Shown here piece after piece: positions 8,801 through 47,403 of a stretch of DNA of 47,403 nucleotides. Below the pieces are notes generated by a model. It was not told the DNA's origin and did not search any database. It saw nothing but the letters and a program-made list of their open reading frames with translations. This stretch comes from Patellaria atrata CBS 101060 (taxonomy: Eukaryota): assembly GCA_010093705.1 (NCBI GenBank), contig MU006097.1, positions 858,298 through 905,700 of the forward strand. The letters are read 5' to 3'. Numbering within the stretch: the stretch's first letter is position 1; every line of letters starts with the position of its first letter. A program made the translations under genes and the position numbers.

Positions 8801-9302
8801 AGTAAGGTAGTCTTCCGGGGAGGGACTCAGTATTTAATTTTACTGTGGTCTGTCCTTACAATTCTGGTTCTTGTTCCTCCGTCTATTCCCGTTTCTCCTT
8901 TCCCACTCAAAAAACACAAAAATATGTACCACCCCTTACTTCAACGACGTTACCACTAGATTCTCATTTCCCAGTATAACATGTCAGCCGCGCCGTTTTC
9001 TTTTGTTGGGCGTTTTTAGGTTCCGGTTGGTAGATTAGAATACACTGTCGTTACCGTAACTCTGCTCGCCCTCCATTCAGTGATATTAGTTTCGTGACGC
9101 CAAAGGATCGAGCTATCTGCATCAGGGTATATTGCTCGTTGCTATCTTAGGTATCATCTCCAGTTCCTCCTCTTACTTCCTATGTTCTTCCGAATGCACT
9201 GTAAGAAAACGCTGAATGCAACGACAATATTAAAATCCACAACATAAATTTCCATACACATAAGGCCCCTACATTATCTCTCATGGAAAACAATGGTCAA
9301 AT

Positions 9303-10469
9303 CTACACCACCCTCCACACAGCCCACCATACCACAGCTCCCGCAACCAAAACCGCGCCCGCCAAATCCCGGACCGCGATCTTGCGCATCCCGAAGTGAA
9401 TCTCTTGGTTCCAGACATCACCCGCTACCAGGGGGATAACCATATTTTCATCTTTCCCCTCCCCCTTCTCCTTTAGACCCTCCTCCCTTACCTCCTCAAC
9501 CCTCTTAACCCCCTTCTCTCTCACCACCTTCATCGGCACAACAATATGCTTCGGCGTCGCCAACAAACAATCCAACTCCTCCACAACGCGAATACTAAAC
9601 GCAAAAATACTCAACGCCTCACCAATAACATCCCTCCTCTCCGCCTGCGTGAGAACCATATCGGCAGCCGCAAACCCCGCCTTAAACTCCGCCTTGACAT
9701 CCTCGCCATCAGCCTCGCCCTCAAAGTTAAAAAACCGTAGCGGCACCTCCGGCGTAGCATCCAGATTGTTTATGGAGTCCTGCTGCGATGCATCCGCCCG
9801 CCGCCTCCTATCCCTCGAACTCGACGCCGGCGGCGCAGAAAGCCAGAACTCACGCGGCGCGGAGGCGAGCTGGGCGCGGATCCAGCGCCCCCCGGAGAAT
9901 AGCGCCATATACAGCACCCAGGCGTACGCGAGGAGGACGTGTGGGCGAGCTTGTGCGGTGGCGGTGAGGTGGGCGGCGAAGTCTTGTACGACTTCGCCGG
10001 GGAAGTGGGAGAGGTGCGCTGCGAGGTCTACGTCGCTTAGACCATAGAGTTGGGCGAGGTCTTGTTTGAGACGGGTGGAGCGGGGGAGGCCGGGGGGGAG
10101 GAGGGTCGATAAGAGACTGAGAAGGGCGGGCCGCGGAGGGGTGGTGTCTGGAGAGGAGAGGAGGAGAGAGAGGGAGGGGTTGCGCGGGGTTGAGAGGTCG
10201 GAGAGGTCGGAGAGGAGGGACTCGATTGTGAGGTAGATGTGTGCGAAGTGCGTTAAGCCGTGGGTGTAGAGTCTTGGGGATGATGAGATAGGAGGGAGGG
10301 CCAGGGGGAGACGGGAGGTTAGGAAGCGGTTCAGGGTTGTGTGGGGTTGTCTATACGTTCATAGTCAGTATAATTAGTTACCTGCGAGTATATTGGACGG
10401 GTACCTCGTAGCAGCGTTTATCTCTGCGCTCAGCGAGCTTGGAGGCGGCGAAAGCGGCGGTGCGGGCAT
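9303..10469 (-). CDS. Heme oxygenase-like protein with C-terminal membrane anchor; intron 10351-10404
   Basis: MPAPPLSPPPSSLSAEINAATR|QPHTTLNRFLTSRLPLALPP...PHVLLAYAWVLYMALFSGGRWIRAQL...LRFFNF...KAEFK..., in frame with ORF 9303-9917. It has the proximal His region and the LxGG distal-helix motif of the heme oxygenase fold, plus a hydrophobic C-terminus. Confidence 0.88.
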
Positions 10470-11099
10470 ATTGGGAGAGTTCTCTTGCGAAAGCATTATG
10501 AAAGACGAGACGGGAAGTCTCGTAGAGCGCGTCGCGCAGCCCTATTTAAGTCACCTTGAGGACTTCATGGTGTTGTAGGCAGAAGAGCAAAAGGCCGGCA
10601 CGTGGAAGATATCAGAGTCAAGGTGAGGCCACGCGGGATGGGCAAGGATGCTCGGAGCCGGGGCGCCACATCCCGTGCTGGGACATAGTATTAAACTACC
10701 GGTTCCTATGTCAAGTGATGACAGCTTTGGTTTCTGATGAGAAGTGAGATGTCTTTGGTGATACGAAGGAATTATGGGAGATGATCAGGGACAAGTGATT
10801 AGATTTCGACGTTCAGCGCAAGGTTACGTCATGTGAGGCTGAAATGGAATCGCTGGTGAGGCTTGACTTCGATACCTCCTGAGGGTAGTGTCCTTCCGTT
10901 ACACATATCACTTAATAAAGAGCAAAATTAAACTATACCTAAGTGGATTGCTATACTTGAATGATGAATATAAAATAATGGTCATTTATCTGCTGCACAA
11001 GGTGAGTAAGTTCTATCCATCATCTACGGTGGACCTAACCATGTGAATTAGATAGATAGGTACCTTAGGGTTCTTCAAAGGATTCAATACCCTCTTGTA

Positions 11100-25886: not shown

Positions 25887-28244
25887 TTAGATGATGGTAA
25901 TTGTGTATCTCCCGTCACTCGTACATCCCTGCGAAGGCACTCTGCAGGAAGCGCATCTTTTCACCAGTGATGATAATACACGATACGCGGGATCTCTACG
26001 GTTGAAAGGCCCATCTTGTTTAACGTCTCTTAAGAACTCTGGTAGCTCTTCTGGAAGTAATTTGCCGAATTGCGGGAGACTTTCCTCTTCCCAAACAGGA
26101 TACTGGTTCTTTGGAACTTGTAGATGGCCTGATTCGTCGAGCTTCTGATTCCTGTTTGGCCAAAATATCGTGTAACCCATACCAATGCGCTGATAAATAC
26201 CTTTACTTGGTGCTATTGCTTCAATTAGAAGAAAGTAAATAGAAGATTCCCAGATATCTTGAAATGTACCATGACGGGTACGCGCGGAAAAAAGAGGAAG
26301 CATGTAGCATTCCATTGTTCTCCTGAATTCCGGTCGCCGTCGATAGCGTAAGTTGATATCTTCAGTATCGAACTTAGTGTGAAACATAATTCGACCCTCT
26401 GAACACCCTAAGTATTTACCCTCATACATAGGATTATCAACGCTATTTCTCAAGACCCAAGGGTATTCGGAATCCCTAAAGTTGATGAAGTCGGACCAAG
26501 TTAGACCGAACTCATCTGACGCGTTGTTTCCGTAGCCTATGGGAAACATCCATCCAGTCAACCGAAGCGAAGATTCTTTTATCTGACCAAACAAATTAGT
26601 CCCAGAAGGTGTTACGTGCGCATCAATGAACTCCACCAGCCGTTGGTGATCAGTCTGGTAGTTGTAGCGAAGTGGTGCATCAAAACGAGCCCAAGACCAA
26701 GAAGGCGCACGATCATTCCAAGCGATTTTCGGATAATATATAAGACCCCACGCAAGATCTCTTTCGAGAGTTTCATTCCATAGGCCAGCTAGATATGATG
26801 ATTTGGAGATTTGATGGACAACTCTAGCCACTCCCGAAATAGCAACTAGTTTATCGTCGGCAATAGTTAACTGAGTATTGCTGTAGTATTCCACGATTGT
26901 CTGCCAGATATCCGAGTAATTGGTAGACGACAAAGCTTTCAGAGACCCTAGAGTATCAGGCTTGAGGGTAAGATCCTCGCGTCCTATGAGAGATCTGAAT
27001 CCACGGAAATGAGAAGGAACCATAGAACAATCTAAAATCTCCGAACTAAGCTCTTCAGCACACTCGAAATACACCAAAGACTTTGTGAAGCTTATATTTC
27101 TTCTCGCTAGGAGTCGTTCCTGGCATACCCAACCTCGACGGTACAACGGTTCCTCATCGAGCTTGTCGAACAGAAGTATATCCGTGTGCCGTCTGGTGAC
27201 CTCGTTAGCTCGTTTTCTACCAGATAAATGCACTCGGTGAGGCCAAATTGTAGTAGGATCTCGGTCGTAGAAGAGTCCTTCCAAGCTGTTGGTAGCACAA
27301 GTTGCAGCAATATTGCAGAAGCTATTTTGGTATATCAGGTCCATTAGGCCACTCTCGTAGTCCCAATCCTCTGCCGAGTCTTGGATAATGCACTATTATT
27401 ATTGTGTCAACTAGTTATCCTAAGATCAACTGTTCAACAAACTTCCAGTTTCAATGAAACCTCTTCTTACCAGCGAATCAATCCACAAATACTGGATTCC
27501 CAACTTAATCGTACATTCAACGGCATCAATGTACTTACGCGGTGCTAATTTTACTGGGATACGCATGCTGTACTCAGCAAGACTTTGTTTTGTGAGCTTC
27601 AAGTGCTGATCATTACCCCATCGATGACTCAGTGTGGTATATGGGCTTCGAACGCGGTTCTCACTGGTCGAGACTAATCGAAGTGTCACCCTCGTCCCCT
27701 CTCGCCCAATCTCTATCAATCTTGTCGGTACCCAGTCATTCGATTCCCGGCAAACTTCATGAGAACTCTCGCAGTTTTTAATGCGGCCGGTTATATACTT
27801 CCAAACTTCCTGTGAATCTGTCCTATAAGAAGGCTTTTGCAGCTCGCGATCAGAGGCTACCCTTATGACGAACTCGCAATAGTCATTATTTTGCAGTGAG
27901 TATATAATAACAACAACGCTAAGAGATCGCCGAGCTCGCGTCTCCAGCTGCATATTCGCAAGGTTGGTAGGAGAGACTTCGAGAAACTCCTGATTCCACC
28001 TTGGGGGGGAGGATTTCATATGATGTAAGATCTGCATACACCACCAACATCTACTCTGAATGCCATTTACGAGCTCTGCTGAATTGCGGTGGAGAATCGT
28101 TCCTTCTTCTTTAAGAAGGTAATAGAGAGCAATCTTGTCGAAGATGGGCAGTTCCCATATTGTTTGGCACCGCTCACATTCCTTCCCTAATGTAAAATCT
28201 CCATCATTGGGTAGTTCTTCAACTAATTTAGTGGAGGATTCCAT
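25887..28244 (-). CDS. Heterokaryon-incompatibility (HET) domain protein; intron 27393-27470
   Basis: N-terminal CxxC..CxxC; HET motifs PTRLIEI, YTTLSHRWG, YLWIDSL|CIIQDS.EDW, IYQNSFCNIAAT, PLYRRGWVCQERLLARR; C-terminal DKLVAISGVA, YLAGLW, RAPSWSWA, YQRIG. Splicing joins ORFs 27426-28295 and 25887-27344 in frame. The start ATG is uncertain. Confidence 0.92.
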
Positions 28245-29399
28245 AGATATATGTAGAAATATACACCACTCCGTGTCCGAGATCGTCAGGTTCAATAATA
28301 CGTCTAAGTTCAGACCATCTTAGTTTGAAAAGTTCTACTATGATGAGACTTTTTTGTAAGATATCAAGACCAAAAAGGTGAAAGATGGCGCAAGGCTCGG
28401 AAAAGATAAGTAGTCTTGGATTCGACCTTACTCGATTAGGATTGACCCTCAGCCTTGCAGACTTCCAGAAACTTCAACTGTTACTATACTCGGCTTTGAA
28501 GCCTACGCAATGAGGTCTCAACGTTCAGAAATGAATCATTCATAAGAGCCCAAAGCATGACTCGGGACACCTTATATTTAGAAATTGCGGTGAGTTCCTA
28601 ACGCTAGTTCTAAACCCACGACGGAGAATCTCCCCCGCTATGTTCGCCTTGGTCCCTACAGGCTAGTCTGGACCGTACAACTTTTTTATTAGGGACTGCA
28701 TGTAGCGCTCACCATGCACTTCAAAGGGTTAATAGTTTTCCAGTGGGCTAGAGTTTAGCCTCACTGTCCATAAGTAACTTGGTGGGAGAAAAAGCTGTTC
28801 AGCCTTGCGAATCAGTGCCCTAAATTAGACTACGAGACCGCCCTCGGGGGCAGATCTTGTTTGCATTGTTAAGCGATGGAACCCAAAGATACCGAAATAT
28901 CCTCTAGGTATCTGCTCCTCGTTGCCGAGCAACAACCACAAATCCTCTTTAGGTTTTGATCTGATGACCACTTTTCGAGATAGAGTCGTGACGCTGCAAC
29001 CAATGGAGAGTCCTCTCGGTTGTCCTCGGTTATTTGCCGAGTTTGGGGATGTATACTGTTGTAGATTCATATTGTAATAGAGGAAGTGGTTTGTGAGATT
29101 AATTTGCAACGCCAATTAAGCTCATATATTCGGTTTCGGAAGGGATTCGGTACGTTCCGATGATGGTAATATCTGTTCTATTCCAGGTCTTAGTAATGAG
29201 TAGTGGAAGGATTGTTCCCGCATATTAGATATACGGACCCAAAACCAAGGGGTCCATTTACCTCAACAACGGGGTACCCGGTGGCGCATACTGAGATATT
29301 GTAGCAAGGAAGAATGCCTCGGGTATTGCAAATATCATATGAGAAGAAGTTCAAGCTAGAGCGAGTAACAATGCTGTGCTCTGTAAATGATCGGGATAT

Positions 29400-30629
29400 T
29401 CAGTCTTCGACCCTTGGCCTCTTACCGTCCCGAACTGTCTCATCACCGTATCTCTTCCTTTCTCCAATAGGTTTGGCATTGGCCCCAGTAGCCCCTCCAC
29501 CTTGATATCCTTTGTCCGGCTTAAACCTATCATCATCCATATAGTCATTCTTTGCTCCTTTTCGATCCCCAAATTCTCCCCACCTTCCCGTGTCTTCCGA
29601 CCTCAAGTCTTTATATCTAGTCCTTCCTTTCTTTCCCAATTTCGTCATATCCCTAATTTGCATGTACTGCGGTAATAGCTCACGGTTAACATCGTCCGCA
29701 AATTTTGCTCCTGCTATCTCCCGCCTATCCAAACCTTGCTCCTTGGCGTCGTCCTGAAAAAAAGCCCCTTTATGGAAGTACTTTTGCATATATCCCATCT
29801 TTCCCCTATCCCCTTGCTCTTCTCGTTGTTTCTTCAGGAATTCGCGATCTTCCGCTTCCCGTTCCGCGGGAGTGAGGTTCTTCCGTCGCTCAATTTCGGC
29901 GATCTGGGCTTCCTCCTGTTCGATCTTTTCTCTCTCTCGTTTGACACGCCGTAATTCACGTAACTTCCAGGCTGCACGTTCAGCCTCCACATCCAGTCCA
30001 TCGGTATCGTCAACCGCCTCTGCATCCAAAACATCCTCGTCATTGTCCCACTGCTTTTTCCCCGCAGCCTTTGCTGCAGCATTTTTCTCCAGCTGCTCCT
30101 GTACTACCGCATCGGCTTTCGCTTTCCGCTTTGCTTCCTCTTCCGCGTATTTATCCTCTTCTGATTTACCGTTGGGCGCTGAGACCCCATTCATCTTCCG
30201 CTGATCCTTCTTAACAAACACAGGCCTCAGCATCTTTCGTCTAGCCGCGCCATCATCGCTGCTACTCTCCTCATCGCTCTCACTCTCCTCTCCACTTTCA
30301 CTTCCATCCTCTTCGGAGCCCTCTTCACTATCTTCTGTCTCAAACCCTTCCTCCTCCTTCGCTTTGGCAATTCTCTTAGCTTCTAACCGCGCCGCTTCTT
30401 GTGCAGCTGCTTGCTCCCTTCGTGCATTGAGATCAACGTTCTTGAGATTATTTGATAGGGCTTTTGCCGAGGGGAATGATGTAGCTTTAGGAGCAGACGC
30501 GGTGGGTTTCTGTTGAGCTTCCTCTTCGGATTCTTCTTCCTCGGAGGTTTCTGGTTCTGGTGCGACGGGTTTACCAGCTCGGTATCGAGCTGGCATAACA
30601 GGGTTGGGGCGCATTGTTTTGGGAGGCAT
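29400..30629 (-). CDS. MFAP1: Microfibrillar-associated protein 1 (MFAP1/Spp381/Saf3-like) spliceosomal B-complex factor
   Basis: LRPVFVKK, VDDTDGLD.EAERAAWKLRELRRVKRERE, MQKYFHKGAFFQD, RELLPQYMQIR, GKKGRTRYKDLRSEDTG; intronless 409 aa. Confidence 0.95.
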   Translation of the reverse strand: MPPKTMRPNPVMPARYRAGKPVAPEPETSEEEESEEEAQQKPTASAPKATSFPSAKALSNNLKNVDLNARREQAAAQEAARLEAKRIAKAKEEEGFETEDSEEGSEEDGSESGEESESDEESSSDDGAARRKMLRPVFVKKDQRKMNGVSAPNGKSEEDKYAEEEAKRKAKADAVVQEQLEKNAAAKAAGKKQWDNDEDVLDAEAVDDTDGLDVEAERAAWKLRELRRVKREREKIEQEEAQIAEIERRKNLTPAEREAEDREFLKKQREEQGDRGKMGYMQKYFHKGAFFQDDAKEQGLDRREIAGAKFADDVNRELLPQYMQIRDMTKLGKKGRTRYKDLRSEDTGRWGEFGDRKGAKNDYMDDDRFKPDKGYQGGGATGANAKPIGERKRYGDETVRDGKRPRVED

Positions 30630-31311
30630 GTTGAATAATATGTGTTGGTGGAAATGTAATTGAAGATCGTGCGTATGCCCTCAAAAGTGAGGTCTAAAAT
30701 CGTAAAAGCGCGAGTCATGTTAAGGTATTCTTGGCAGTTTTTGACGTTGGTATGCGCACGGCCTCGCTTCGCCCATGGCGTTCCCGTCTGAACCTTAACA
30801 CAACGTTTGAACTTCAATTCTCTCCTATCCTGACTGAAACAATAATTCTCAACTTCATCTATGATACGGGTACTACGAGAATATGTTAATTGAAATATGT
30901 TAATTGAAGTGCGTGATTCTTCGACGTTCCCTATGTCAAGTATCGGGTTGGTTCTACACAGTAAGTCCAGCAAGTATTGATAAGCTGTTAGAGTCAATAT
31001 AGAATGAGTGAAGTTAATTATATCTCTATGAGAATGATATAATTATATTTTATAAAGATCATGAGCAGTCGAAGATTGAATATGATAGAGAGTCTGTTAT
31101 CAGTCTGAACACCAATTCGACCTCTCCTGTCCGCTGACTTCCAGTATCTTGGCCCTACTGTTCATTAAAATCACGTTTTTCCCGTTCTTCATCAACTAAA
31201 TCTGTACCAGAAACATGCTCAAGTCATCAAAAATAGGTCCCACCTTCCTAAACAAACAGTCCTGTTTGCACCTCATAAGTAAAAAATTGCGAGAATCCCT
31301 TCGACTTTCAT

Positions 31312-37699: not shown

Positions 37700-38915
37700 C
37701 TAACAACCGACGTAGATAGCTAAAGTACGTTGATCAGTACGAGATGTAGGAGTCAGGAAGATGAGCATATTTACCATTTGCAAAAAGCGCATAAGTATCG
37801 GCATTGAGTACAGCTCTGCTAGATGACAATGCAATGCTGGCGGAGTAACCATAAGCATAATCATCAGTTCCAGGGCTGTACACGCCTGGCGCGTGCGTGT
37901 ACTCGTGGAGCGTCGTGGTAGCCTGGTCTTGAGCGTGGCAAGTCCGGGTGAGGGCTGGGAGAGCGCTGAAGTATATGGGGCAGTTGACTACGAGGTTGGT
38001 GGAGGGCTGTGTGTAGGCGAGCGTATTGCTGCTACAAGCCCCCAGTTGATCAGTACAATATTGTCGCGTGGCCCCACTATTTGTGGAGCTACATTCGGAG
38101 GCAACCGCACGGAATCGCGCCGCAACGGTTGATCTCACACTGGAAGAAGTGGTCTTGAAGTACTCCTGGAATCTGTTTGAAAATCAGCTTCACTGTCCAT
38201 CTACAGCGACCAGTTACTCACTTGCTAGCAGAGCCAGAAGCAGCAGCATTGGCAGCAGCATTTGCGAGGCTTTGGCAGTTCCTGAGTGCAGTTTGGGTTG
38301 CGGAAAGGCGGCTGCCGGTACAGTCTGACTGAATTCGCGTGCGCTTTTCGAACGCAACCTTCTTGGCCCTAGCAGCCTCTCCATCAACGGAGAGGGAAAG
38401 GATGTTGCTCTCGAAGTATACAGCACTACCGCTTAACTCATTCGAGTCGGCTTCGGCGAAGGGAATGGCTCCCTCGGTGAAAATGTCAAAGTTTCCGCCA
38501 GAGGAGAGATCGTGAACCTCGGCGACATCGAACTCGAATTCGAGGGTCTGGCCGGCGGCAATTGGTACGAATGCTTCATCGTTGAGACCGCTTGTCCTAA
38601 CACGCATGCGAATACCCTCAAAGGCCACGGGAGCAGCTTCGGGACGTCAGCTTGGCACTATATCCGGGAGCCGGATGAAGACCTACTAGCAGAGAACACT
38701 TTCGCGTGTTCGACAGGAGCGGAATCCAGGAAGGTTCCGGTCTTTAGCAATTTCAAATCAGACGTTCCAGTGTTGTGCACAATAGCTTTGATCAAGGTGT
38801 TGCCAACAGCTTCAATGTCAACTTTGACATCACTATTGCGCTTGTTCAGGTTGACAGAGGCGGCGGAGACAAGTGTAACCAGTGCGGCCAACGAAAGTGA
38901 AGCGGAGATCCTCAT
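37700..38915 (-). CDS. Deuterolysin / neutral protease 2 (M35 metalloprotease) prepro-protein; exons 38915-38687, 38636-38222, 38172-37775, 37719-37700
   Basis: Signal peptide [18 protein letters not shown]; propeptide ending in [35 protein letters not shown] (HExxH); GTDDYAYGY (aspzincin Asp ligand); [17 protein letters not shown]. Three GT-AG introns keep the frame. Confidence 0.96.
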
Positions 38916-40890
38916 AATGAATGTGAGAAACTGGTGTTAACTTGTTAACTGCGCCGTGAAGACTGAAGTGACTTGATTGTATTAATGCTGCTGGGGATCA
39001 CTGCTCTCGAAGGTCCAGCCAGCCTACTTATAGAAAGCAAAGAAGAATATCCTCCATGGGAGCTGCCTCGGCGTTGACCGTTGATGAACCATGTCCCCTG
39101 ATAAGCACCATGGGGCAATTCCTTGAAGAAGAAGGTCAAGATCACTGCGTATTTAGCATAGCTATCGATCTTGGGTTTCTCGGGCTCAAAATGTAGTCGA
39201 TCCTATAAATGAGCTAGTGAAGTCATACGTATGGCGAGTAGCATGGATGTAAATTGCGGGGGACAGATATCCCTATCTCTTCGTTCTCTTGGCTATCACA
39301 CGATACTATGGAAATGTCGTGCACGATGGGGTCCCATGCAGGTACATGCCATACGAACGAAGCAAACGGTTAAGAGTTGGAAACATATATACAGGTTTCT
39401 GGGAAAAGAAACTTGAGAACTCAGGCTTTCCAAGTATGCTTGATAGATGTCTCAGGGATGATGCTCAACTAAACCAATAAGAATGGATAATGACTTCGAA
39501 AATGTCTATATAGATCCATTTGACTGGCTAACGATGGAAAAATGCGAAATAGCAAAGGGACAGAATCTGAGACGTGTTCATGCCAGCGCATTGACAGAGC
39601 TGCCCCGCAGCTAAGATGGACCCTTGAAGCTTTTGGATGATGGTTTTTAAACAATTGAAGGGCAGATAGTTGATCAAGACGGGATTTAACATGGACTAAG
39701 CAGGGCTGAAGTTCACGTCAATTAACATGACTGGGTAGACAAGGCTAAAACCCTTATCTTGTAATATAAAGGGTAAGTAGCCTGAAGTAAGTGTGACAGG
39801 GATTTCCCTTTCATACTGTGGACAACTAGGGCACTGCATATATGAGTATATAGTGTTTTCCCAATCGCCTACGGGTGTAGCCATGCCCGGTTGAGGAAGG
39901 ACGAGATTAGAGGAGTAAAAAATGGTTGAGGTTGAAAGAAACTCTTGAGGTAACCTTAAATGAGCAGCATCCCGCCAAGTAGAACTATTTCTAATGCACC
40001 AAACATCTCAAAAGTGCCAATCTCCCGTTCCTATGCACAGCTTCTGACAAGACTGTAAACGAACACGCGTTTGAAATATGGCGTCTTGATGTTCCACTAC
40101 TACCGGATGGAATAGAAGTGAAAAATTACCTTGCCTTATCTCGCATGAGGAAATGGTTGTGATTGCAGAGTCGTAGTGCATGACTTGCTCCCCCATGACT
40201 TAGTTCAAAGGTTGTAAAGCTGTTTCGCCTTCTGTTCATCTATGTACGCGTATGTAGTTCCACTGTACAGAGGTACAGTATTTCTTGTGCTCTTAAGAAG
40301 CTTTTGGCGAATCCGCCACAGCCGTATAACGTGCAGGATTCTCTGTGATCGGCACATGCAGTTTAATCCCCGCGAGAGCCTGTAGTTCTGCTACTACTGC
40401 AACACCACGAAAGATCACCAATTACCAAGGTGCGACTGCAAGTACTAAAGTCTTAAAAAGATCGAGACTTCGCCGATAGCCAAGGTGTGCATCCCTTTCA
40501 CTGGCTTTTTCGGAAACTTGGCTGAGATCGTCAACAATGGGAAGGTCGGGGACACTGCTGGAGTTGCAGTTTATCAGATACAAGCTCAAGTGCGTACCTT
40601 ATGATCTCGGTCAGCACTCCTATAAGGGAAGCTCCGAACAAGTCCCCAGGACACCTCGTGCATGGAAGATAGCAATAATGGGTTTGGGTTACATTAATCT
40701 CCATTCGTGTCTCCTCTCACAAGCACACCAGTTAGCTAAAGCAAATCCTGTCTCAATAGCTACCATACCTAAAGCTTCAATTGGAGTAATCAGTCCTCGT
40801 TAGACTTGGGAAACTCACCGCGGAGCGACTCTCCCAATCCAACGATTTGCATTATCAATCTCCATCCTCATTCTCCATATCCCACCATCC

Positions 40891-41478
40891 ATGATCACTC
40901 GAGGGACTGCTATCGTTGTTCTTGCTGCCATCAGCATAACCGCCTTCTTCACTTACCCCTCTTTCGGATCGGCGTTCAGAACCATGGTCGGTTCGAGTTC
41001 GAATTCTATTCGGCCCACCGCCCTCTCCATCGAGCTCTCCCAGCATTCAACCTCTCCTCCGACCCTTCGTGCCACAGTACGAAATAATCATTCCAAGATC
41101 TTGACCATATTAACTTGGGATACCCCGCTGGACGAGAAGGCAGCAATACTTGGAGTCTTCCGTGTGACGGAAAAGAGTTCGGGGGACGAAGTTGAAATGG
41201 GAGGAATAAAAATCAATCGGCTACTCCCTCCTCCCCGCGACGCATTCGTCGAGCTAAGTCCTGGCGCAGAATCTAGCAAGGATTTCGAATTAAAAGAGCC
41301 ACTGTGGCCGATGGAAAAGGGCCATCGTTATTACATTAAGGCCGTTGGCGATTGGAAAGCTGTATGGGAGGCTAGAGTTGGAGACCTTACCGATGGTGAC
41401 TTTAAGGATATGGCTGCAAGTGAAAGGGCGATAAAAATAGAAACATACGAAAGTGAACCGATTGAGGTTGAAATATGA
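40891..41478 (+). CDS. Secreted or signal-anchored protein resembling an isolated M35 (deuterolysin) propeptide domain, with no catalytic domain
   Basis: Intact 195-aa ORF with hydrophobic N-terminus (AIVVLAAISITAFF). The core LRATVRNN...LTILTWDTPLD...VEMGGIKIN...DAFVELSPG aligns by eye with the neighbouring propeptide IKAIVHNT...[11 protein letters not shown]...VAFEGIRMR...EAFVPIAAG. No HExxH. Confidence 0.75.
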   Translation: MITRGTAIVVLAAISITAFFTYPSFGSAFRTMVGSSSNSIRPTALSIELSQHSTSPPTLRATVRNNHSKILTILTWDTPLDEKAAILGVFRVTEKSSGDEVEMGGIKINRLLPPPRDAFVELSPGAESSKDFELKEPLWPMEKGHRYYIKAVGDWKAVWEARVGDLTDGDFKDMAASERAIKIETYESEPIEVEI

Positions 41479-42074
41479 AGTCTGCACTTCTTGTTTTCAC
41501 TTTGTATCGCCCAAACAGCCAGAGAATGACTGAGGTCTGGTGGAACATAGGGAAACAAGAAAACGCGTTCCGCCTGTTCATGTATACTATCTCCAACAGT
41601 TGAATCTAGAAAACACGGCAACATTCTTCAGGCCTAACCTGAAGAGACAATCACTCATAGACCTAAATTTCATCTCAGACAACTTTAACAGCATGGGTGA
41701 ATGGAGGCATGGGCGAATGGAGTTATTATTGATCGTAACCGCACGTTGACAATGAGGGCGTATTAGGCTTTGGTTTCGGAGGATCCGGAAAGCTCAAGGC
41801 GAACAGCACGTATCACGTACCTATCGCCATATACGCGGGTTTCTGTGTACTGGCCTATCGTATTATACAAAATACGGATAGAAGTTTATATAGACTACAT
41901 TTACCACGGCCGCTTCAACCCACACGACTAGGGCAAATCCGGGGTCCCAACACGTTCCCTCCGGCAGCCCCAAGGTGTCAACGGTCGAGGGTCGAGGGCG
42001 GAATACGGCGAAGACATGAAGCTGGAACCGCAAGCTGGCCATCTCGTGCCATCTTGCACGCGTCCAACAACCCA

Positions 42075-43510
42075 TCAACCAAATTTCGGAGAGCACGGCT
42101 GCATGGAGCGGACCGAGCGGATCAAAACGGTATATGTCGCAAAATATGCGACCACGGGCGCAAGACACAGGAAGGGAAAAACGTAATCTATAGCGTGGGC
42201 TGTCCTCGTCTGCAACGCTTGCGCTTGCGTCTGGCCGTTTGGACCCTCGCTTCCCTCCCGAGATGCTCCAACACCCTCCGAGCCCGCACGACAGACGTTC
42301 AGGAACTCCATCACGCCAAGCAAATCCTCGTCAGCCAGCTCTTCGCCATCCATATCGATGGAGGAGCGGGAGCCCCTGGTCAGCTTCAGGCGCTTTGGAC
42401 CGCGCGGGGGTTCGGGGGACCCGTTGTCCTCGTTCGGGGGCCCCTCGTGCTCGCCCTCGGACTCGTCGTCCGTCACCACGGGGGAGAGGTGACCGACGCG
42501 GATGGCGGCACGGTAGCCGCCAACGCCCTCGCCCGGATCCACCTCCAGGTAGGTGGGGTCGGGAGGCAGCGCCTGGACGGCGACGGTACGGACAACATCG
42601 CCGGCAAGCATCTTATCCCTAGTGAAGGTGTCGGGGTAGCACTCGCCGATCATTCTCATCTATAGGTGATGCGCCTGGGGGTGCGGCCATTGATCCAGGA
42701 CGTGAAGGAGGCGAGCGGAGGAATAGCGGCGAAGATACCCACGCCGTAGGCGCTCTCTTAAGATCCAGCCACGTTATAAAGTCGGCGGTGGGGCAGCCGG
42801 CCTGCTGGAGGGCCGCGAGGAGATAGGACTGTGCGGAAGTCGCGAGTCTGATGCCCGGCCGGACACGGGTCGTTGATCCGGGTTATACCTGAAGAAGCGT
42901 TGCAGTTCCAGGTAGTGGTCGTACAGCCTGGCGCTCGCATGGCGCTTGTTGAGCTCGCTCGTGACGTCGAGGGCACCGACGAAGCTGAGGAAGTCTCAAC
43001 TGCCCTTGAAGCGGCTTTTAGGGTTAGGGTCGACGACGGCGATGGGGACAACTCGAGAACTCGCACCACGCGGTGCTTCGCCAACCACCTCACGGAAGAA
43101 AGCAGGCTCCGGACGGAGAAGAGCTCTTCTCGTCCGCCAGGCGTCACCACCTAGGTGATATCGTCGTCCGTCGCTTCGAACACAAAGTCCACCCAGGTCC
43201 ACCCAGGCGGCCGCCCTGCCGTCGAACTCGAACCCGAGGGACAGGGACGCGAGGTGCCCTCCTCACCATGCGCGGGAGCTATCTCCAGGGTACAGGGATG
43301 GGGGTTAGCCTGAAGGACGTCGTATGTGGAGGGAAATGCTACTCTTAAAGTTAGGGTCGCGCGGCGTGAGCGCGAATTCCGTCGTTTGGGTGAGGGAGAA
43401 AGCGACGCCGGGACACGTTACGAGTGATACGTTTATCAGTTGAGGAGCAACAAAGGTCACGATGCGGACGAACTGCGATGCAGAAGAGGTTGGCGACGTG
43501 AGCGTGTCGT
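42075..43510 (-). pseudogene. GC-rich degenerate multi-exon gene of unknown function
   Basis: Strong GC3 bias and protein-like segments (LASLSLGFEFDGRAAAWVDFVFEATDDDIT*, DFLSFVGALDVTSELNKRH..LYDHYLELQRFFR, acidic stretch plus PKRLKL). Candidate introns with CTAAC branch sites; in-frame stops at ~43151 and ~42660; a 10-bp tandem duplication at ~43188-43207. Boundaries are approximate. Confidence 0.5.
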
Positions 43511-44936
43511 GATACTGATATTGACGATGAGATGGGTGCGAGGATTTCTTGGAGTGTAAAGTTGTTAGCTGTAAGCTGTCTGCTGTCAGTGCTGTGGAGC
43601 GACTCGATGCACGGGCCATGATTTCAGCACACCATCCGTGCGGAAATCATCACGCCTATCTTAGCGGAACGAGTTGAAAGGGTGTATGTAGGTTGTCGAA
43701 CTTCCACTTACACTGTATTGTCTTTGGTCGAACGAGTAACGGGGTCAGGATGAGTAACTGAGACGGAAGACCGTCGCTCATCTACTACCACGCCTGAACG
43801 GATACGTCGGGATGGAATGGAATGCGCATGATCGGCAGCCCGTGGAGTCGTACGCAGGCGAGGTATATCACTTCAAATACGGAGAACGGGTGCATCGACT
43901 TCACGTCACTGGTGACTTGGATTCGGGCATGAGATATGAATACAAACTAGCAAGACCTATCGTGTAAAGACATACCTTGGATGTTTCCGCGTCGAAGAAT
44001 ATCCAACACGTTCGGATCAAGTATTGCGAAAAGGGCATTCAACCTCAAGACAATGCAGACTGAGCAAATCAAGCTGAATGGGACATTTCATGGAGCCAAT
44101 GAGCCGATATGACCATATATCAAGTGTACAGAACGGACCGAACAAAGAGCCCTCGCAGCATTGTATCAGAATCAGCTCCTACGCACCAACCTAACCCAAG
44201 CTCTACTGTAGGGAGATAATACACAAGAGAGCTCTACTCAGACTGCTCAAGTCGCGAATACCACTGTCGGTGCGGCAAGTACGGGTTGGGTATGGGACGA
44301 AGACAAAAAGTGCTACCGTTATCAAAACGGGTAGGAGTAGGTTTTGCAGTGAGATGCCTGAGATAGGACCAGGCAACTATTAGCAGATGTGTTTGATAAA
44401 GTATGGATGAAAGTTTCGACAACTGGTTATATGGTGTTTTATGTTGTTCGTTTATTGTAGATTCGGTTTCCATTTGACTGATTTGTGTTGGTTTGGCGCG
44501 GCCCAATCACGTGTACTATCTGTCTTTGGTGGTTACCGCAAAGCCCTCATACCCGTTCACGGCAATGTTTCAACATCTCAAGCGATTGTATCCTTTTCAC
44601 TACACATCTATTGCGTCTTCCGTTGGCGCTACTCGCTAATACTGTGCCCTTACAAAGAAAATGGCTGGTGGAGCGGTGGGCGTGTCCATCCAATGGACGA
44701 TGGTGAATGGCCTTTTATGTTTCGTCTGTCTTCACCATGCAAGTGGATGGCGAGCCTGCGCCACGTCGTAGCCTCGTGGGCAGCGCGTTGAATCACTGCT
44801 ATATAATCTTTCCATGATTAGGCCTTCGAAGTCTGCTTCCCTCCTGTCGACGTTCGACTTATAGACCTAGCCACTGATATACCGAACGAATCACACGAGT
44901 AACACTTACCAGGAGGTCGCTCGCGAATTTAGTTTT

Positions 44937-47403
44937 ATGGCTCTCATACGCCTCTTGCACCGCAAGCCCGACGGCGAGATCGTCTTTCGCGAACCCACCG
45001 GCGGCGATGTCCCTTCCTACACAATACTCTCCCATACCTGGGGAAAAGAGGAGGTCAGCTTTCAAGACATGGAAGCCGGCACGGCTAGGAGCAAGGCTGG
45101 CTGGAGGAAGATAGAGTTCTGCGCTAAGCAGGCTGCAGCAGACGGGCTACAATATTTCTGGATAGATACTTGTTGTATCGATAAAAAGAACGCCGTAGAG
45201 CTTTCAGCGGCCATCAATTCGATGTTTCGGTGGTATCAGAAGGCAGTGCGGTGCTACGTCTACCTTTCAGATGTCTCTATTCACGGTGAAGGTCAGGACG
45301 GACAGTCTAGCTCTACATGGGAAGCCGCATTTAGGAAGAGTCGATGGTTCACTCGGGGTTGGACGCTTCAAGAGCTTATTGCGCCGGCACAAGTCGACTT
45401 CTTTAGCTCTGGGGGCAATCGACTCGGGAATAAGCTATCGTTAGAACAAATGGTCTACGATATTACCGGTATCAATAGAAATGCTCTCAGTGGTGATCCG
45501 TTGTCCACCTTCACTATTCCTGAGCGGATGTCTTGGGCAGAGCGCCGCCAAACCACTATCGAAGAAGATGAGATCTACTCGCTCCTTGGAATCTTCAATG
45601 TCTCATTACCCCTTATCTATGGCGAGGGAAGAGAAAGTGCATCTAGACGGCTTCGAGAAGAGATAGACAAGGTCAATAAAGGTTAATTTAACTTCTACTA
45701 AAGGGAGACCGAATAGTGCTCACGAAACTAGGTGCTAACTTCGAACGATTTTCTGTCGGCCTTAACCTCTCGACCCTACCTCACTATGTTCAATTTGTTG
45801 CAAGGTCGAAGGAGCTTACGGAAATGCACCGGATGCTCCACGGCCATAGCACTCGATCTATTGTTATCCTTCATGGCCTTGGAGGGATCGGAAAGACTCA
45901 ACTAAGTCTCGCTTATGCTATGCGACACGAAGAAAAGTTCAGTGCAATATTCTGGTTAAATGCGAATGACGAGGGTTCTCTCAAGCTTAGCTTTCGAGCC
46001 GTCGCTCAGCAGATCCTAAAATATCATCCTTCGACCAGTCTACTTGCTAGTATAGACTTGGACGACCTCGACCAAGTAGGGCATGCGGTCAAGGCCTGGC
46101 TCGATCTCCAGAAGAATACTCGCTGGCTGATAATCTATGACAATTACGACAACCCTCAAACAAGTGGTAACACCAATAGCTCTGCAGTCGATATACTTCG
46201 ATTCCTCCCCGGATCAAATCATGGCTCAATCATCATCACGACACGATCGGCGCAAGTTAAGCAAGGTCAACGTCTCCATATCCAAAGGTTGATGGACGTA
46301 CAAGAAGGGCTTGAAATCCTATCGAACACGTCAGGACGAGAGGATATTCAAAGCGGTATGTTGAAACGATATGAAGATGCAAGATAAGAAGCGTACTGAT
46401 AAGATAGACCCCGATGCATTAGCACTAGTTAAGGAACTAGACGGCCTACCTCTTGCTCTATCCACTGCAGGTGCATACCTTGAGCATGTGACAACGAGCT
46501 TCTCAGATTATCTTCGGCTCTATAAGGCGTCATGGCTAAAACTTCAGACGACCAGTCCACAATTGATTTCCTACGAAGACCGCTCGTTGTATACAACATG
46601 GCAGATCACCTTCGATCGGATCGGACAACAGAATGCCGCATCAGCCAAATTACTTATATTGTGGGCATATTTTGATAGACAGGATGTGTGGTTCGGACTC
46701 CTTCGACATGCAAAATCCGCAGACGATGAATGGATAGAGAAACTAACTAAGGATGAACTAGACTTTAATAAGGCCGTTGCGCTACTATGTAGCTTCGGCC
46801 TGGTTGATGTAAATCGGTCTTCTCATCATCAATTCAGGTCTAGAGGGTATAGTGTACACAGCTGCGTACACTCGTGGACGATGTTTGTACTTAACAAGGA
46901 TTGGAATGAAGACTTCGCAAGGCTGGCCTTAACTTGCGTGGCTTCAAAGGTTCCCAGCATAAATGAGAAGGACTGGTGGCTCTTACAACGGCGCCTTCTT
47001 CAGCATGCGAGACGGCAGGACCTCTTTATAGTGGATGGTAAGGTAGATATGAATGGACTGGATTGGGCATTTCACAATCTAGGCAATCTTTACGCCGACC
47101 AAGGCAAGTTGGCCGAGGCGGAGAAAATGTACATTCGGGCGCTCCAAGGCAAGGAGGAGGCACTTGGACCGGACCACACATCGACACTCAGTACAGTCAA
47201 CAACCTAGGCAACCTCTACGCCGACCAAGGCAAGCTGGCCGAGGCGGAGAAGCTGTACATTCGGGCGCTGCAAGGCTATGGGGAGGCACTTGGACCGGAC
47301 CATACATCGACACTCGATACGATCAACAACCTAAGCAACCTTTATAGGAATCAAGGCAAGCTGGCCGAGGCGGAGAAGATGTACATTCGGGCGCTGCAAG
47401 GCT
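44937..47403 (+). CDS. Fungal NLR: HET effector domain + NB-ARC + TPR repeats (3' end beyond the window); introns 45682-45731 and 46356-46407
   Basis: HET motifs YTILSHTWG, FWIDTCCIDK, AINSMFRWY, SRWFTRGWTLQELIAP; Walker A GLGGIGKT; Walker B WLIIYDNYD; IIITTR; ELDGLPLAL; YSVHSCVHSW; then 42-aa TPR units. I read exon 3 (46408-47403) as open to the window end. Confidence 0.95.
47076..47403 (+). repeat. 126-bp tandem repeats encoding near-identical 42-aa TPR units (about 2.6 copies visible)
   Basis: Units start at 47076, 47202 and 47328 (AAYCTARGCAAY...); consensus NLGNLYADQGKLAEAEKMYIRALQGxxEALGPDHTSTLxTxN. Confidence 0.95.

Follow-up and report, generated by a model that had tools for sequence, protein, structure and literature searches.

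Can the prodomain of a secreted protease exist as a gene of its own beside the gene of the protease, and what would its product do there? The question is raised by a locus of the fungus Patellaria atrata CBS 101060, within a stretch of 47,403 nucleotides of contig MU006097.1 (assembly GCA_010093705.1, positions 858,298 to 905,700 of the forward strand). The whole of this stretch is referred to below as the window, and contigs from two DNA sequencing runs span it without joints. An earlier reading made from the DNA letters alone (the sequence-only reading) had picked out an M35 protease (deuterolysin) gene and, transcribed away from it, a small open reading frame (ORF) resembling the propeptide of that protease. 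The parts of the locus, in window coordinates, are as follows.

37700-38915, minus strand: gene for an M35 metalloprotease of the NPII/deuterolysin type, four exons, 353 aa (PF02102; database protein P0151; structure 1eb6).
38916-40890, no strand: divergent intergenic region of 1,975 bp, presumed bidirectional promoter (related loci have spacers of ∼1.0-1.8 kb).
40891-41478, plus strand: stand-alone, intronless gene for a 195-aa protein resembling the M35 prodomain (ORF call, homologous clusters, common C-terminus, and ratio of non-synonymous to synonymous divergence, dN/dS).
40897-40953, plus strand: hydrophobic helix at the N-terminus (residues 3-21), read as a signal anchor, possibly instead a signal peptide (helix in the AlphaFold2 model; Kyte-Doolittle hydropathy).
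40984-40986, plus strand: Met32 of the flexible linker, encoded by the second in-frame ATG (ACCATGG), where translation might also begin (start of the gene model P0001).
41023-41472, plus strand: beta-sandwich (residues 45-194), the domain that is the homologue of the M35 prodomain (hhalign, Foldseek, VIA).

The 195-aa protein is homologous to the prodomain of M35 proteases (deuterolysins) and stands alone, without a catalytic domain. Its gene, whose coordinates include the stop codon, is the longest ATG-started reading of an open frame beginning at 40804, and the ORF call agrees with the position, strand and length read earlier. The protein starts with the hydrophobic helix, continues with a flexible linker of ∼22 residues and a beta-sandwich covering the whole prodomain fold, and ends just short of the linker and Kex2 site (Lys-Arg, KR) which connect a genuine prodomain to its catalytic domain. 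No HExxH / GTxDxxYG catalytic domain was found in it, as the sequence-only reading had stated: the ORF finishes after the sandwich, and a tblastn search of the window with P0151 detected no second M35-like stretch, only the neighbouring gene being matched.

The relationship to the prodomain is not visible in pairwise comparisons. With BLASTP, neither prodomain exon could be aligned to the ORF at E ≤ 100, and a search of the local Pfam copy gave no PF02102 match at E ≤ 1, the sole match being Styelin (E 0.033, below its cut-off); nor did the Pfam scan find Inhibitor_I9, Inhibitor_I29, PepSY, FTP or PF12690 in the ORF. At the profile level, we compared an 80-sequence alignment of the small family (A1, the ORF and 79 of 150 listed matches) with an alignment of 12 M35 proenzymes (A2, P0151 and 11 of the 17 further M35 proteins recovered by a search with it). 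Here hhalign gave a probability of 97.1% and an E-value of 5.4e-11 over 138 columns, pairing residues 39-195 of the ORF with residues 24-163 of P0151, that is, with the entire prodomain, at ∼18% identity. When the prodomain columns were used alone the E-value was 9.2e-11, whilst the mature-domain columns showed no significant similarity (E 0.63) and the best of 10 column-shuffled prodomain profiles reached only E 0.075. Given these negative controls, the similarity between the ORF and the prodomain is well beyond chance, at the level of profile and structure only. The four collinear blocks pointed out in the sequence-only reading, although insignificant as pairwise matches, all fall in columns that hhalign aligns. 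The family profile found nothing real among the PDB sequences; its sole row, a flagellin at E 0.95, arises because of the hydrophobic helix.

The predicted structure leads to the same domain. The AlphaFold2 model of the ORF, computed with A1, has a predicted local distance difference test score (pLDDT) of 89.3 and a predicted TM-score of 0.75, with a helix at residues 3-21 and a beta-sandwich at 45-194; the linker is of low confidence, residues 36-40 having a pLDDT below 50. In a Foldseek search of the PDB, the top four matches were chains of the proenzyme of AsaP1, an M35 aspzincin of Aeromonas salmonicida (2x3b_A, 2x3c, 2x3a and 2x3b_B, E 1.9e-6 to 6.7e-5). To our knowledge, AsaP1 is the only M35 enzyme whose structure has been solved together with its prodomain. 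VIA aligned the model with AsaP1 at Z 11.4-11.5, with a root mean square deviation of 2.6-2.9 Å over 111-117 residues and 23-24% identity, and placed model residues 44-195 on residues 23-151 of the AsaP1 chain, which are the prodomain and not the protease. The next match was BsuPI (Z 9.1, 111 residues, 9% identity), followed by generic sandwiches at Z ≤ 7.2. The M35 prodomain anticipated by the sequence-only reading is matched in the profile comparison and is the best match in the structural one. The fifth Foldseek match, 8fk7, is an artefact of the hydrophobic helix, as was the flagellin.

The independent models of the ESM Atlas give the same picture from either side. In fungal ‘Neutral protease 2’ clusters, the part assigned to PF02102 is matched by the ORF model with TM-scores of 0.66-0.69, and when M35 families are excluded, the feature clusters nearest to the P0151 prodomain are the same unnamed ascomycete clusters that lie nearest to the ORF; the scores of these common clusters, 0.83-0.84, are to be taken as a lead only. 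The Atlas also holds stand-alone bacterial proteins of 158-176 aa (Pseudomonadota, Myxococcota and Bacteroidota) which share the M35-prodomain fold (TM-score 0.63-0.72). Some of these look-alike clusters are automatically named ‘Protease’, and one carries PF30909. A scan of prokaryote genomes with the M35 alignment gave 22 pattern matches, none of which was confirmed.

The ORF and the M35 prodomain, for which AsaP1 (2x3a/2x3b/2x3c; PF02102 in its N-terminal part) is the reference, have the same whole-domain beta-sandwich, and the profile similarity is to the fungal prodomains. Landmarks common to the ORF family and M35 prodomains are an invariant Asn in the ‘xNxG/xNNH’ strand, the pattern L-x-W/T-x-x-P/x-L-D, and, in the I-K/N-R loop, a basic residue with Pro and D-x-F after it. 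Unlike an M35 prodomain, the ORF has no attached catalytic domain, no C-terminal linker and no KR site, it lacks FDVAEVHDL and a PF02102 match, and a hydrophobic N-terminal helix of its own replaces the classic short signal peptide. The motifs of the A1 family are WDTPLD, NRxxPPxRD and GxWKAVW, and its near-invariant residues are N65, L74, P79, D81, G88, R110, P113, P114, G153, W155 and W159. We place no weight on a possible correspondence between the conserved NR loop of this family and a lysine of the AsaP1 prodomain that would enter the S1' pocket.

We also considered whether the ORF arose recently by partial duplication of the protease gene, and rejected this. The ORF is only ∼18% identical to the prodomain, it has no intron, whilst intron 1 of the protease gene (38686-38637) lies within the prodomain-coding part, and it belongs to a large family of its own. 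The same conclusion, and the difference in introns, had been reached in the sequence-only reading.

That family was recovered by an exhaustive HMMER search with the ORF, which gave 269 clusters (at 50% identity) at E ≤ 1e-3 and 175 at E ≤ 1e-10; a word-indexed homologue search had returned only the window's own protein. The members are mostly ascomycete, and those with names are ‘hypothetical’ proteins of Dothideomycetes. The best 150 of the 269 homologues are 115-417 aa long, and no M35 domain was found in any of the 14 longest listed homologues that were scanned. One of these 14 has a Sua5 domain, which probably reflects a merged gene model. The close homologues all terminate within a few residues of a common C-terminus. 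Among homologues from the metagenomic loci described below, dN/dS is 0.14-0.33 (10 pairs with a defined synonymous divergence, dS; two further pairs were saturated), and the homologues of the small ORF are under purifying selection. Chance, either in the ORF itself or in its similarity to the prodomain, would agree with the empty pairwise BLAST and local Pfam searches, but is refuted by the 269 homologous clusters, the dN/dS values, the confident fold and the profile and structure matches with negative controls.

In the Atlas, PF30909 (Pfam 38.1) is assigned to the aligned part of the closest structural cluster of the ORF, consisting of 214-aa ascomycete proteins (TM-score 0.88), and also to a 173-aa bacterial ‘Protease’ cluster matching the M35 prodomain. 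With PF30909 on these nearby clusters, the domain may already be catalogued under that accession. The local Pfam copy probably does not contain the PF30909 model, and we found no mention of the accession in the papers searched.

Where the protein resides depends on its N-terminus, which was surveyed in 150 sequences (the ORF and P0002-P0150). A regular expression for W[DG]TP found no motif in 30 of these, and 38 had fewer than 60 residues before it. In the remaining representatives, with at least 60 aa before the motif, a hydrophobic segment (19-residue Kyte-Doolittle mean of at least 1.6) is present in 65 of 82, and in several family members the hydrophobic stretch starts 31-84 residues into the protein. 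As judged from these sequence features, a signal anchor, for which a type II orientation is inferred, fits the family better than a cleaved signal peptide does. In the window protein, the best 19-residue window scores 1.86, and the h-region of ∼15 residues is followed by GSA|F, so that a cleaved signal peptide is possible in this particular case. The sequence-only reading had described a secreted protein with a hydrophobic leader; the hydrophobic helix is indeed present, whereas ‘secreted’ is doubtful with 65 of 82 segments scoring as membrane-spanning.

A second feature of this region is a Met in the linker, found in 60 of the 65 anchor-bearing representatives, mostly 37-48 residues ahead of the W motif. 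The window and eight close loci (L001, L002, L003, L006, L007, L009, L016 and L025) have exactly two in-frame ATGs. The first (40891 in the window), ahead of the helix, has a weak context, position -3 being a pyrimidine in eight of the nine. The second (40984) falls within the linker, and here position -3 is a purine in all nine; the context in the window, ACCATGG, is a strong Kozak sequence. The database gene model P0001 begins at this second ATG. Initiation at Met32 could thus give a 164-aa form without the hydrophobic helix, and the two-ATG pattern suggests leaky scanning that would yield anchored and anchor-less forms. We had also considered the spacer between the two starts, which is free of ATG in any frame in all nine sequences, as evidence for leaky scanning. 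This was discarded, as codon shuffling gave P = 1.0 in five of the nine, with a product of 0.12.

The neighbouring gene is an M35 peptidase (deuterolysin, NPII type). Its four exons (38915-38687, 38636-38222, 38172-37775 and 37719-37700) make up 1,062 nt, coding for 353 aa and a stop, and the product matches P0151, a ‘Neutral protease 2’ or hypothetical protein of Patellaria atrata CBS 101060. P0151 comprises a signal peptide, a prodomain up to K174-R175 and a mature domain from T176 with HEYTH and GTDDYAYGY. PF02102 matches the gene with E-values of 3.5e-8 and 1.3e-27, both PF14521 and PF02102 are precomputed for P0151, and the comparison with the solved structure of Aspergillus NPII (1eb6) gives E 7.1e-68. 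In the 12-sequence M35 alignment, K174 and R175, H304, E305 and H308, and D319, Y322 and G323 are invariant, and the conserved cysteines are also present. Maturation of fungal M35 zymogens at a KR site by Kex2, in the secretory pathway, is described in PMC11985622.

Is the pairing of the two genes a peculiarity of this genome? In the window they are divergently transcribed, with start codons 1,975 bp apart. A scan of metagenome contigs with a 12-sequence alignment gave 28 loci, of which 17 have at least 2 kb of upstream sequence and 11, with less than 1.3 kb, are uninformative. A divergent M35 gene, detected by tblastn with P0151, lies upstream of the homologue in five of the 17 (L003, L007, L009, L016 and L025), the start codons being separated by roughly 1.0-1.8 kb. 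The 12 loci without linkage represent three lineages (L012-L014, which are identical; L017-L023 and L028, which are near-identical; and L026, a partial match only), and therefore five of eight lineages are linked once near-identical copies are merged, all five belonging to the subclade closest to the window. The head-to-head arrangement noted in the sequence-only reading is thus not a one-off, recurring in five diverged metagenomic loci, whilst the expectation that homologues would be linked to M35 genes holds for five lineages and fails for three.

The linked loci are well separated from one another. L003 and L007 share 63% amino acid identity with a dS of 2.2, L007 and L009 share 58% with a dS of 1.1, and the homologues at the linked loci are each 33-39% identical to the window ORF. 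Between the window and the five linked loci, conservation is confined to the two genes, the spacer showing no coding conservation. In the window, the pair is flanked by HET, MFAP1 and NLR-like genes, and the window has none of the genes flanking the pair in L007 (10637-18467) and L009 (10659-18810), where a DNA ligase, an EH-domain protein, a Cupin_8 protein and an S26 signal peptidase lie downstream, in inverted order. The breakpoint of the inversion between L007 and L009 abuts the small gene and leaves it joined to the protease gene. The six paired proteases all have the NPII-type signature [16 protein letters not shown].

The same two families therefore stand head-to-head in diverged genomes with differing flanks, as in a conserved divergent pair. 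Part of the family retains the pairing, to an extent that the surrounding synteny does not explain, although it is not universal; in at least one other fungal clade it has outlasted saturating synonymous divergence. We placed the loci in a tree of 105 rows, comprising loci with high-scoring segment pairs of at least 100 aa, with identical rows dropped, and those of P0002-P0089 that are 150-260 aa long; L025, L026 and L027 were too short to be included. A single clade, which also contains a Paraphoma protein, unites four of the five linked loci (SH-aLRT 93), and the window ORF lies outside this clade on a deep branch that the tree leaves unresolved.

The region between the two genes gave little to distinguish it. 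The motif CCGHCGG, which we take to be of the PrtT type, is absent from the intergenic region of the window and occurs once in one of the five related spacers; window-wide there are nine occurrences against 8.3 expected. Counts of PacC, CreA, AreA and CCAAT motifs in the intergenic regions were uninformative. Only two 7-mers, GCGGGGA and AGATTAA, are common to all six spacers, where shuffling gave a mean of 0.3 and a maximum of 2, too weak an excess to call; the former matches the SYGGRG motif of CreA/Mig1-type regulators.

What might a free M35 prodomain do? The closest parallel in logic is with the free prodomains of MEROPS families I9 (yeast PBI2, Pleurotus POIA1 and the Plasmodium SUB1 propeptide-like protein) and I29 (CTLA-2 and crammer). 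The ORF has the structural hallmark of this propeptide-like class, being a prodomain homologue without a catalytic domain. It differs in its fold, in being related to a zinc metalloprotease class and in being membrane-anchored, as predicted, rather than soluble; it has no I9 or I29 match, and for the ORF inhibition would follow by analogy. Free propeptide-like inhibitors are experimentally established for serine and cysteine proteases, according to PMC6993865, PMC4089206 and bioRxiv 10.64898/2026.05.05.722857. The PepSY and FTP propeptide domains of M4 and M36 peptidases are likewise metalloprotease prodomains that are also found as separate proteins, although their fold and peptidase families are unrelated. 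Stand-alone secreted or membrane-anchored PepSY proteins are said to have been proposed as regulators of peptidases by Yeats, Rawlings and Bateman in 2004. The second-best structural match, BsuPI of Bacillus subtilis (3isy, PF12690), is a protein inhibitor of a protease on a similar sandwich, and in neither of the Atlas feature searches does a Pfam-named cluster lie nearer than that of PF12690 (0.84 and 0.78, leads only). BsuPI differs from the ORF in sequence (9% identity, and no PF12690 match for the ORF), in being bacterial and in having, by its name, an intracellular protease as its target, which we take to be a serine protease.

With these parallels in mind, we tentatively favour a trans-acting, membrane-tethered mimic of the prodomain, which would bind or inhibit the mature form of the paired protease as an inhibitor or holdase. 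In such a scheme, the protease zymogen would fold with its own prodomain and be cut by Kex2 at the KR site in the late secretory pathway. The anchored mimic, made from the same promoter region, would face the lumen or the cell exterior and dock on the prodomain-binding face of the mature enzyme, which would be kept inactive, or retained at the membrane near the producing cell. The second conserved start codon may add an anchor-less form. The sequence-only reading had proposed a co-regulated pair in which a free M35 prodomain protects the secretory pathway or cell surface from the protease, helps it to fold or blocks foreign metalloproteases; the stand-alone prodomain homologue and the recurring pairing stand, whilst secretion is doubtful and part of the family is unlinked. 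A bolder form of the proposal would make this the founding family of M35 protein inhibitors, tied to the protease by a conserved bidirectional promoter, with anchored and cytosolic forms made through leaky scanning that would protect the producer, on either side of the membrane, from the protease that Kex2 has activated, the bacterial stand-alone proteins being the same device. We regard this full version as improbable.

Several observations weigh against a role as a mimic acting on the paired protease. The protease still carries its full prodomain, which leaves no evident need for another; the ORF lacks the C-terminal linker that leads into the catalytic domain; and FDVAEVHDL, the most conserved motif of fungal M35 prodomains, is not kept in the small-ORF family. 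Some family members may lack the anchor, in which case their domain would be cytosolic and separated from a protease that is secreted. Since a single clade accounts for four of the five linked loci, linkage is documented at only two places of the family tree, and in the three unlinked lineages no M35 or other endopeptidase gene was found within up to 10 kb, the neighbours being Maf1, dynactin-5, Arf, PMI, Kelch and MFS genes and an M20 fragment. The linkage could even be a relic of an inverted duplication. This last point leads to the alternative that we take most seriously, although we consider it rather unlikely: that an ancient inverted M35 duplication lost its catalytic half and that the sandwich now serves a purpose unrelated to M35, for example as a membrane or cytosolic binding module, the head-to-head order persisting in some lineages only because short divergent pairs break up slowly. 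Such a history would account for the three of eight lineages that are unlinked, amid housekeeping-type genes, for family motifs that differ from those of the M35 prodomain, for an identity to the prodomain of only ∼18% and for possible anchor-less members, and the sandwich is of a common fold type, with many matches at Z 6-7. It accounts less well for a pair that has been kept across dS-saturated divergence while its flanks were rearranged or replaced, for the distance in the family tree between the window and the other linked clade, and for paired proteases which are all of one M35 subtype.

Two further alternatives keep the connection to M35 proteases. The protein might act in trans as a helper of folding or secretion, an extra chaperone or escort that aids folding, trafficking or Kex2 processing and does not inhibit. 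The prodomains of M35 and other proteases serve as folding chaperones, and for the AsaP1 prodomain itself this was reportedly found by Bogdanovic et al. in 2016; co-location in the secretory pathway would follow from the hydrophobic N-terminus, and the divergent pairing is conserved. Against this, the prodomain of the protease is itself intact, and the free propeptide-like proteins characterised so far (I9 and I29) are known as inhibitors; we think a helper unlikely. A mimic exposed for defence or attack, blocking M35 or related metalloproteases of competitors or hosts, is very unlikely in our view. The domain is predicted to face outwards, its fold is specific to M35, and prodomain-type inhibitors can cross-inhibit relatives; but it would be left unexplained why the pairing with an endogenous M35 gene is conserved, a membrane tether would restrict the reach of such a protein, and Patellaria atrata is a wood saprobe.

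Our literature searches found no description of a stand-alone M35 prodomain homologue or of an M35 protein inhibitor, in keeping with the statement in the sequence-only reading that no characterised M35 equivalent was known. Passage searches of a 2026 survey of M35 proteases in Dothideomycetes (PMC12924839) gave no mention of prodomains, and those of a paper on the degradome of Aspergillus ochraceus (PMC11241649) no mention of a protein of this kind. Table 4 of the latter gives A. ochraceus eight M35 members. The one with the highest transcripts per million, PP619190, is only 183 aa long and might be an M35 relative that is truncated or has a single domain.

What appears to be new here, as our results suggest, is the extension of the free-propeptide principle to M35 metalloproteases, combined with a probable membrane tether and with a divergent arrangement that is conserved. 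Among the proteases that fungi secrete, the M35 deuterolysins are abundant, and they are a nuisance in fungal protein production. They are also implicated in the virulence of plant and animal pathogens, according to PMC12924839, PMC11522218 and PMC7215534. If the mimic reading is correct, the protein would offer a scaffold for a specific M35 inhibitor, a natural binder derived from a prodomain, as well as a way to study how fungi escape damage once Kex2 has activated the enzyme inside the secretory pathway. It would also be the third, metalloprotease case of a free propeptide as regulator, after those of subtilases and papain-like enzymes. If instead the rival reading of a relic linkage is true, the gene would still be a clear case of a prodomain set free and re-used.

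Beyond the pair, the window contains HET-domain ORFs at 44871-47402 (plus strand) and 25890-28319 (minus strand). In the gene at the window end, which runs off that end, the HET domain is followed by NB-ARC and by TPR_10/TPR_12 repeats; it looks like an NLR-like fungal incompatibility or immune-type gene. The second HET-domain gene, upstream, is split, and MFAP1 lies at 29403-30680 (minus strand). Between the small gene and the gene at the window end, the region 42000-44000 is GC-rich (0.55-0.62, against about 0.45 elsewhere) and contains long overlapping ORFs on both strands, for example 42075-42659 (minus) and 41739-42662 (plus), none with a Pfam match. A second GC-rich stretch, at 9001-11000 (0.53-0.54), is marked by a sharp flip in GC skew from -0.26 to +0.39.

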